This document shows, one piece after another, positions 51,291 to 51,518 of a stretch of 64,000 nucleotides of DNA. This DNA comes from an uncultured Halanaerobiaceae bacterium (GTDB lineage: Bacteria > Bacillota > Halanaerobiia > Halanaerobiales > Halarsenatibacteraceae), in contig CAZVZM010000001.1 in the NCBI GenBank assembly GCA_964630835.1, forward strand, positions 60,151 to 124,150. Reading direction: 5' to 3'. The notes beneath the pieces were generated by a model. It saw only the letters and a list, made by a program, of their open reading frames with translations. It was not told the DNA's origin and made no database searches. A program made the translations under genes and the position numbers. Position 1 is the first letter of the stretch; the number at the start of each line of letters is the position of its first letter.

Positions 51291-51518
51291 AGCGTTGAGC
51301 GGGAATTTCCCCCCGCGAGCGAACCTGCGAAAGGTCTGGATTGTTCGCCGAGTAATGGGTTCCGGCCTGGTGAGCCGTTATCCTTCACTCTCTCAAGTAT
51401 GCTGCCTGGTAAAGTTTTGGTTAAGCCGTCTTTGCGGCGGTGGCTAATTGGGCGGCAAAAGGGTGGTACCGTGAGAGCAGAAACAGCTCTCGCCCCTTGA
51501 AAGGGCGGGGGTTTTTTT
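51291..51518 (+). promoter_or_regulatory. serS T-box riboswitch with apparently ultrashort Stem I
   Basis: T-box AAAAGGGTGGTACCGTG (51457-51473), terminator 51487-51518, Stem II with GAA/AGTA, GCCGTTA, and a UCC (Ser) triplet in the loop of a 5-bp hairpin. Confidence 0.85.

Follow-up and report, generated by a model that had tools for sequence, protein, structure and literature searches.

Upstream of serS, the gene for seryl-tRNA synthetase, an uncultured Halanaerobiales-like member of the Bacillota carries a leader RNA in which an ultrashort Stem I is combined with an intrinsic transcription terminator. We put the probability that this leader is a functional T-box, one that senses tRNA-Ser and attenuates transcription, at about 0.8. 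The leader lies on the + strand of a 64-kb stretch of DNA, here called the window, and positions in the window are used throughout unless a contig or locus is named. Homology, as judged from its sequence, places it in the T-box superfamily, with a class III-like decoding module coupled to a class I expression platform. This reading is based on the anatomy of the leader, its conservation and covariation, the presence of a matching tRNA, and its derivation from full-length ancestors. The initial annotation of the window had proposed a transcriptional, Ser-specific T-box with an ultrashort Stem I, and the UCC specifier, the matching tRNA-Ser(GGA) and a terminator in place of a sequestrator of the Shine-Dalgarno (SD) sequence all agree with that proposal, which as regards function is a prediction.

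A short decoding arm in front of a transcription terminator

A comparison with the T-box family RF00230 of Rfam had been suggested as a check, and it gave an end-to-end match from 51286 to 51500 on the + strand (model positions 1-219) with a score of 43 bits and an E-value of 4e-8 (3e-8 genome-wide), much better than chance would give. This match is below the gathering cut-off of the family, which is 93 bits, and the leader was detected in E-value mode; an Rfam scan of the whole window at the gathering threshold yielded no matches, the serS leader included. The low score has a single cause: 74 Stem I positions of the model are replaced by 6 nucleotides (nt) in the aligned leader. Missing are the S-turn (AGUA), the upper helices and the AGAGA bulge, together with the distal loop and, from the specifier loop, the GAA strand; the absence of the S-turn, the AGAGA bulge and the distal loop had been noted from the sequence and is evident in this alignment.

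What is left of Stem I (51292-51320, as delimited by the RF00230 alignment) reads GCGUUGA-GCGGG-AAUUUCCC-CCCGC-GAGC and corresponds in every respect to the hairpin with GA motifs, a helix of five base pairs (bp) and an 8-nt loop containing UCC that had been described initially. A kink-turn (K-turn) is formed by GC, a GUU bulge and GA at 51292-51298 and is closed by GA-GC at 51317-51320, its two strands immediately flanking the 18-nt Stem I hairpin. The 5-bp helix GCGGG/CCCGC (51299-51303 with 51312-51316) carries the apical loop AAUUUCCC at 51304-51311, and within this loop the Ser specifier UCC (51308-51310) is the predicted partner of the anticodon of tRNA-Ser(GGA). On its own, this hairpin folds with an energy of -13.3 kcal/mol.

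The remainder of the leader has the elements expected from the initial description, namely Stem II, the GCCGTTA region, the T-box and an intrinsic terminator, all of which were recovered by the alignment and a terminator scan. Stem II (51321-51362) is built from GAACCUG (51321-51327) paired with UGGGUUC (51356-51362) and contains the two S-turn strands CGAAA (51328-51332) and GAGUAA (51350-51355) in the RF00230 alignment. It is followed by the IIA/B region (51363-51389), in which Stem IIA pairs CGG (51363-51365) with CCG (51375-51377), succeeded by the conserved UUA, and a 6-bp IIB pseudoknot pairs GGUGAG (51369-51374) with UUCACU (51384-51389). Stem III (51401-51456) has an insertion of about 30 nt, and its GCUGCCUGG/UUGGGCGGC pairing, which was read from the sequence, is also present in the computed fold. 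The antiterminator (51460-51497) consists of helices A1 (AGGG/CCCU) and A2 (GUGAGAGC/GCUCUCGC) around the 7-nt T-box bulge UGGUACC (51464-51470), the UGGU of which (51464-51467) is the predicted partner of the GCCA at the 3' end of the tRNA; the T-box sequence itself is GGGUGGUACCG. The terminator (51485-51518), found by the terminator scan, is an 11-bp hairpin (51485-51495 with 51503-51513) with a T7 run at 51512-51518. The antiterminator and terminator have positions 51485-51497 in common and are mutually exclusive. For its own stretch, the fold of lowest energy is the antiterminator (-17.4 kcal/mol), and the terminator reaches -19.1 kcal/mol, so by these computed energies the terminator is slightly the more stable of the two, which is the usual default-off arrangement.

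When the leader is held against the established classes, a mixed picture emerges. As in class I, it has a K-turn (aligned with high posterior probability), a matching specifier, a UGGN bulge, and an exclusive antiterminator/terminator pair with a U-tract, but its score lies under the gathering cut-off and it lacks a long Stem I with an elbow-binding platform. As in class III, its short Stem I is platform-less and presents the specifier in the apical loop, and Stem II, its S-turn and the IIA/B region are joined to it via the K-turn; the SD sequestrator platform of class III, however, is replaced by a terminator with U7, and the SD sequence is unpaired. The position of this SD sequence also bears on the possibility that the 3' hairpin governs access of the ribosome, so that, as in actinobacterial class III, control would act on translation or on both levels. 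Every characterised T-box with an ultrashort Stem I is indeed translational (PMC7583486, PMC10482949). However, U7 directly follows the hairpin, and the SD sequence GAGGAGG (51544-51550) is located 25 nt past the U-tract (25-75 nt 3' of the terminator in relatives), outside all helices of the switch. We therefore regard a translational mode as very improbable.

The serS open reading frame (ORF) listed downstream of the SD sequence runs from 51558 to 52832 on the + strand and encodes a seryl-tRNA synthetase (SerS) of 424 amino acids (aa). The upstream neighbour of the leader, an ilvE-like gene, ends at 51078. An 83-aa ORF at 51196-51447, which overlaps the leader, was regarded as spurious.

Conservation of the leader and its promoter

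The source genome (G000) belongs to a genus, g1, of an uncultured Halanaerobiales-like family, and the enclosing order is represented by 72 species genomes. The ultrashort design of the serS Stem I was found in all five g1 genomes in which serS was found (G000, G001, G003, G004 and G005); no match to serS was obtained in the sixth genome, G002, the completeness of which is 79%. The Stem I sequence of G004 is ...A-CGGG-AAUUUCCC-CCCG-U..., that of G005 is GUGUAGA-ACGGG-ACUUCCA-CCCGG-GAGC, and G001 and G003 share GCGUUGA-ACGGG-ACUUUCCG-CCCGG-AAGC. Within the genus, the SerS proteins are 78-85% identical and the mean column identity of the leaders is just 66%. Invariant across the five leaders are the UCC specifier, GAGUAA, CCGUUA and the T-box. 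The K-turn is kept in all of them, apart from a single G-to-A change that G001 and G003 have at the 2n position, and so is the Stem I helix, in which a G-C to A-U change occurs at the base.

The collection of serS leaders from relatives, which had been proposed for a covariation analysis, thus comprised five species, and both Stem II and IIB covary. In the decoding module, 94% of the cells are paired and four pairs are altered on both sides, mostly in Stem II, where both-sided changes are seen in 3 of the 7 pairs of the lower helix. No shuffled control matched the covariation score of this module, and in controls with slid pairings the paired fraction drops to 26-45%. The three pairs of Stem IIA are invariant. 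A IIB pairing of 5-6 bp is found in every short leader and covaries with the full-length relatives (GAUAAA/UUUAUC, GACAGA/UCUGUC). At the 3' side, all 11 pairs of the antiterminator are 100% paired and 93% of the terminator cells are paired; alignment column 238, which is common to both helices, changes together with each of its two alternative partners.

Transcription of the leader would start from a sigma-70-type promoter on the + strand with a TTGCTT -35 element (51196-51201), a 17-nt spacer and a TATAAT -10 element (51219-51224), giving a predicted start at about 51231. The combination TTGCTT-17-TATAAT has a single exact match in the window, where 0.01 would be expected by chance, and it precedes the serS leader in 8 of the 8 related species that were aligned. 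Between the predicted start and the K-turn lies a 5' stretch (51231-51291, + strand) of about 30-60 nt across the five genus members, in which no motifs resembling Stem I were found and which varies in sequence and length among species. A long Stem I cannot fold from upstream sequences, because the K-turn encloses the hairpin, the predicted start is only about 60 nt upstream, and the 5' stretch is unconserved. The conservation of the promoter leads to the same conclusion, and the objection that a full Stem I is formed with upstream sequences, which the initial annotation had named among those that could overturn it, is thereby ruled out.

The same region has to be considered for a different reason. 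The switch might work while the contact with the tRNA elbow is replaced by the 5' leader (51231-51291), by the enlarged Stem III (51401-51456), or by a lineage-specific protein, for example one that binds the K-turn. Insertions of about 30 nt do occur, in Stem III of G000 and at the tip of Stem II of G005, all five species have a 30-60-nt extension before the K-turn, and the repeated loss of the platform across T-boxes of the family, described below, hints at a lineage-wide compensating factor. However, the Stem III insertion is confined to G000 among the five species, the leaders of G001, G003 and G004 are compact (173-181 nt), no insertion common to all five leaders that could replace the platform was found in the alignment, and the 5' stretch is not conserved. 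From these comparisons of the leaders, a substitute for the elbow contact other than Stem II alone appears improbable to us.

tRNA-Ser(GGA) and a proposed switching mechanism

With ARAGORN, a gene for tRNA-Ser(GGA) with G73 and an encoded CCA was identified on contig C52 of the same assembly (c[163,256]). The assembly resembles a metagenome-assembled genome (MAG): it is a draft of 152 contigs with 93% completeness, in which only 19 tRNAs were found. Among these 19, ARAGORN also calls a tRNA-Pyl(CUA) and a tRNA-Sec(UCA). The UCC specifier is complementary to the GGA anticodon, and UGGU in the T-box bulge faces GCCA with one G-U pair; in relatives, the bulge has UGGC.

We propose that the RNA started at about 51231 would fold into the K-turn and the 5-bp hairpin, displaying UCC in the apical loop. 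The K-turn would set Stem II against this hairpin, and the S-turn, braced by the IIA/B region, would clamp the three-base codon-anticodon helix and in this way replace the platform that stacks on the tRNA elbow. If the bound tRNA is uncharged, its GCCA end would pair with the UGGU bulge and stabilise the antiterminator (51460-51497), and RNA polymerase would enter serS. With a charged tRNA, or with none, the terminator (51485-51518), slightly the more stable of the two, would form and transcription would stop before the ribosome-binding site. Binding of the tRNA, sensing of its charge, antitermination, compensation by Stem II and a dependence on the UCC specifier are thus what we would expect of this leader. 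There is a precedent for the first step, since class III ileS T-boxes, which have no platform, bind their tRNA tightly via Stem I, Stem II and the K-turn (PMC10482949, PMC7583486).

Several points weigh against this mechanism. Reviews hold that the platform is necessary for fast co-transcriptional capture of tRNA in transcriptional T-boxes (PMC7583486). A purine is usual 3' of UCC and is found in G005 (A), G001 and G003 (both G), but G000 and G004 have a C (as does the full-length leader of G012, a species of the related genus g3). The apical loops in g1 have 7-8 nt, compared with 5-6 nt in characterised class III RNAs (PMC10482949). In G000 and G004, UCC could be masked by an alternative hairpin, GGGA-AUU-UCCC, and this hairpin is present in the minimum-energy fold of the whole leader. 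Lastly, with n=5 sequences, the covariation statistics lend support without being decisive, and they are weak for Stem I and the 3' helices, in which most pairs never vary.

Derivation from a full-length Stem I

To follow the short form beyond the genus, a covariance model (R1) was built from the five short g1 decoding modules. Among the 72 genomes of the order, R1 found the short serS form only in g1; its weaker matches in G008, G028 and G058 are full-length T-boxes. When 80 serS loci from other Bacillota and from further phyla were searched, it matched only a full-length member of the family and no short form. Outside the family, the pattern GAAGGGANNNNNNTCCTGGAG matched in coding sequence only, and a pattern scan of metagenomes returned one contig that is near-identical to G004 and adds no diversity. 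A BLAST search with the leader within the family produced a 20-nt match in G001 (L015), which was set aside as a chance match in coding sequence.

Full-length serS T-boxes are present in sister genera, in G008 of genus g2 (L013, 111.7 bits in RF00230) and in three species of g3, namely G012 (L022, 111.2 bits), G015 (L011, 80.4 bits) and G014 (L014, 71.3 bits, where the match ends at the 5' edge of the locus). Their specifier loops read GAA-UCC-A, or GAA-UCC-C in G012, and their promoters and terminators are homologous to those of the short leaders; the terminator regions of G008, G014 and G015 are 76-79% identical to that of G000 at the DNA level over about the last 65 nt of the query. A line-up of G015 (CGGGAAU-AGUAGG ... 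GCUGAA-UCCACCCGGGAG) with G000 (CGGGAAU-U-UCCCCCCGCGAG) shows that the whole stretch between the 5' strand of the specifier loop and the codon is deleted in G000. Relative to a normal Ser Stem I, the deletion lies between GGGAAU on the 5' side and UCC-N-CCCG on the 3' side. A maximum-likelihood tree of SerS places the full-length genera outside the short-form genus, which is monophyletic (support 100/99), and this points to one deletion in the g1 ancestor. The comparison of these leaders thus indicates that the truncation is a single, recent and derived event at the base of g1 that has been tolerated and maintained since. With respect to the wider relationships, the SerS of G000 is 55-85% identical to that of many Bacillota, its nearest named relatives being those of Halanaerobium saccharolyticum, a Halothermotrichaceae MAG and Natroniella (63-69% identity).

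The AGUA of Stem II is degenerate in the full-length g3 leaders (AUUA, ACAA), whereas it is invariant in the short leaders. This contrast is what would be expected if Stem II has taken over from the platform, and it fits the view that the codon-anticodon helix has to be supported by either the platform or the S-turn (PMC10482949).

In three g2 species (G006, G009 and G011) and in G016 of genus g4, the 1.5 kb upstream of serS yielded no T-box (loci L024, L025, L026 and L028). To judge from these loci, part of the family has thus lost T-box control of serS or never had it. This raises the question whether the g1 leaders are themselves decaying, with recognition of tRNA-Ser gone after the loss of most of Stem I and the leader left as a leaky constitutive terminator or on its way to disappearance. 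The score of just 43 bits, the crippling effect that loss of the platform is expected to have on transcriptional T-boxes (PMC7583486), and the dispensability of T-box control in the family implied by the g2 and g4 species speak for such a scenario. However, the short form has outlasted the divergence of at least five species. The adjacent leader has diverged over that time, while UCC, the K-turn and the S-turn are intact, as are the pseudoknot, the UGGN bulge and the two alternative helices. Moreover, the last base of UGGN, whether U or C, remains compatible with G73. We accordingly give decay little credence and favour the reading as a working tRNA-Ser switch.

Reduced Stem I arms in other T-boxes of the family

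Reduction of Stem I is not confined to serS. In the window itself, the T-box of panB (about 35423-35691; 88.7 bits) has a full Stem I, as anticipated in the initial annotation, which had called its Stem I normal. Of the eight T-boxes in G000, three pass the 93-bit cut-off of RF00230. An order-wide survey with this model listed the 150 best matches, and among the matches listed the best T-box score per genome, 104-120 bits in g1 and most of g3, is clearly below the values of about 117-155 bits seen for most of the order.

The thrS leaders have an intermediate Stem I in G000, G001, G002, G003 and G005, in which the specifier loop ACC-A is retained and the distal part is a 5-bp hairpin; full arms are found in g3 (102-108 bits). 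The G000 example is located on the - strand of L006 at 1501-1764 (G000:C8:48246-48509) and has a terminator with U7; its relatives are L120-L124. In G004, the thrS arm is ultrashort (GCUGUGA-AGGGA-CUACCA-UCCU-GGAGC, with the loop CUACCA). The leuS leader has an intermediate arm in G004 (L133, 105-278), a partly reduced one in G005 (L132, 114-300) and a full one in G000 (L007), and a Phe-type leader is intermediate in G002 (L134, 108-304) and full in G000 (L005); terminators with U7 were read in both L133 and L134.

In ileS, ultrashort arms are present in three g2 species (G006, G010 and G011; loci L135, L157 and L158) and in G012 of g3 (L140), and the arm of G008 is full (L156). The ultrashort ileS arm, AGGGA-(A/C)(U/G)AUCA-UCCU within a K-turn, has the loops AUAUCA, AGAUCA and CUAUCA, and in these leaders a terminator-like hairpin and a U-run precede the gene for isoleucyl-tRNA synthetase (IleRS). 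They thus resemble the actinobacterial ileS type in their arm but differ from it in having a terminator and a Bacillota host. Two further ultrashort leaders with the loop AUCCCA, a UGGU bulge and a terminator (L136, G006:C9:396658-396821, - strand; L137, G008:C1:86028-86192, - strand) are probably specified by the Pro codon CCC, and a full form of this Pro type was not seen. A Tyr-type leader (UAC) before an aroA-like gene has an intermediate arm in g2 (L138, L139) and a full one in g3 (L141). In the leaders that were read through to the gene, a hairpin and a U-run lie between the antiterminator and the ribosome-binding site.

The occurrence of both reduced and full arms across these T-boxes implies several independent losses of the platform. 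A more general proposal can be made only tentatively, and we would grant it somewhat less than even odds: that terminator-type T-boxes of this family have repeatedly and independently lost the platform in at least seven specificities (Ser, Thr, Leu, Phe, Ile, Pro and Tyr) while sister orthologues stayed full-length, that co-transcriptional capture of tRNA may have no intrinsic need for the elbow contact, and that some lineage-wide factor might have relaxed this need.

Relation to known T-box classes

The closest architectural counterparts of the serS leader are the class III ileS T-boxes with an ultrashort Stem I of Nocardia farcinica, Mycobacterium tuberculosis and M. smegmatis (PDB 6UFM, 6UFG; PMC7583486), and the statement in the initial annotation that ultrashort arms are known from translational ileS T-boxes of Actinobacteria is in line with the literature (PMC7583486, PMC10482949). 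The two have in common a K-turn with a short helix, an apical specifier, the absence of a double T-loop platform, the Stem II S-turn, the IIA/B pseudoknot, and the kind of discriminator, with Stem III and a helix bearing the UGGN bulge. They differ in that the serS leader has an intrinsic terminator instead of an SD sequestrator, is specific for Ser (UCC) instead of Ile, and occurs in a Halanaerobiales-like Bacillota host. In addition, the g1 leaders have a loop of 7-8 nt (5-6 nt in class III), a C 3' of the codon in G000, and an ancestry in class I within one family.

Class I Ser T-boxes are represented by the sister serS leaders L013, L011 and L022, which are direct homologues with the same gene, promoter, UCC, Stem II, pseudoknot, T-box and terminator/antiterminator logic; unlike these sister leaders (71-112 bits), the G000 leader (43 bits) lacks about 70 nt of Stem I. 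A further transcriptional Ser T-box of class I is that of serA in Paenibacillus polymyxa (PMC8002221). Class IV, exemplified by ileS of Actinomyces odontolyticus, has an intermediate, platform-less Stem I whose specifier sits in a lateral bulge (PMC10482949). The thrS leader of G000 (L006) and the leuS, Phe and Tyr leaders of relatives are class IV-like in this respect but, unlike the mostly translational class IV, end in terminators. In their arms, these intermediate forms look like steps toward the serS state; the serS leader differs from class IV in lacking any distal helix. Class II glyQS T-boxes (Bacillus subtilis, Geobacillus kaustophilus) are likewise minimal transcriptional T-boxes without one of the modules that bind the tRNA body, but they keep the long Stem I with its platform and drop Stem II, whereas the serS leader does the reverse.

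According to the papers covered, transcriptional T-boxes generally require a long Stem I, and in these papers ultrashort arms are described only for translational actinobacterial ileS (PMC7583486, PMC10482949). The four-class scheme of 2023 states that classes III and IV 'mostly' regulate translation initiation, and all its examples are actinobacterial ileS leaders (PMC10482949); the word 'mostly' implies that exceptions may be known to specialists. TBDB applied its translational model to class I matches with a truncated Stem I, and its description contains no transcriptional ultrashort class (PMC7778990 and supplement). A full-text literature search, the coverage of which did not extend to the original publications by Sherwood et al. 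and Vitreschak et al., likewise did not find the combination of an ultrashort Stem I and a terminator, and within these limits the view that the architecture had not been described is upheld. The abstract of Sherwood 2015 is said to predict that 'many', not all, short ileS leaders are translational, so terminator-type short forms may have been mentioned earlier.

A conserved, terminator-coupled, Ser-specific ultrashort T-box contradicts the division that current reviews draw between long-arm transcriptional and short-arm translational T-boxes. Since the short and full-length orthologues differ essentially by one deletion, the requirement for the platform becomes directly testable, and this natural series of full, intermediate and ultrashort arms is the main value of the finding. 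Minimal decoding modules of about 100 nt coupled to a terminator might also find use as compact tRNA-responsive parts. With regard to annotation, leaders of this kind score far under the cut-off (43 against 93 bits) and are missed or mis-filed as translational, which leaves both the T-box regulons of halophilic Bacillota and the prediction of their specifiers incomplete. If repeated loss of the platform in this family is real, candidates for the relaxing factor would be the molar salt inside 'salt-in' halophiles, slow or pause-prone transcription, and a K-turn- or tRNA-binding protein, and the family would provide natural before-and-after pairs for the kinetic model of transcriptional T-boxes.

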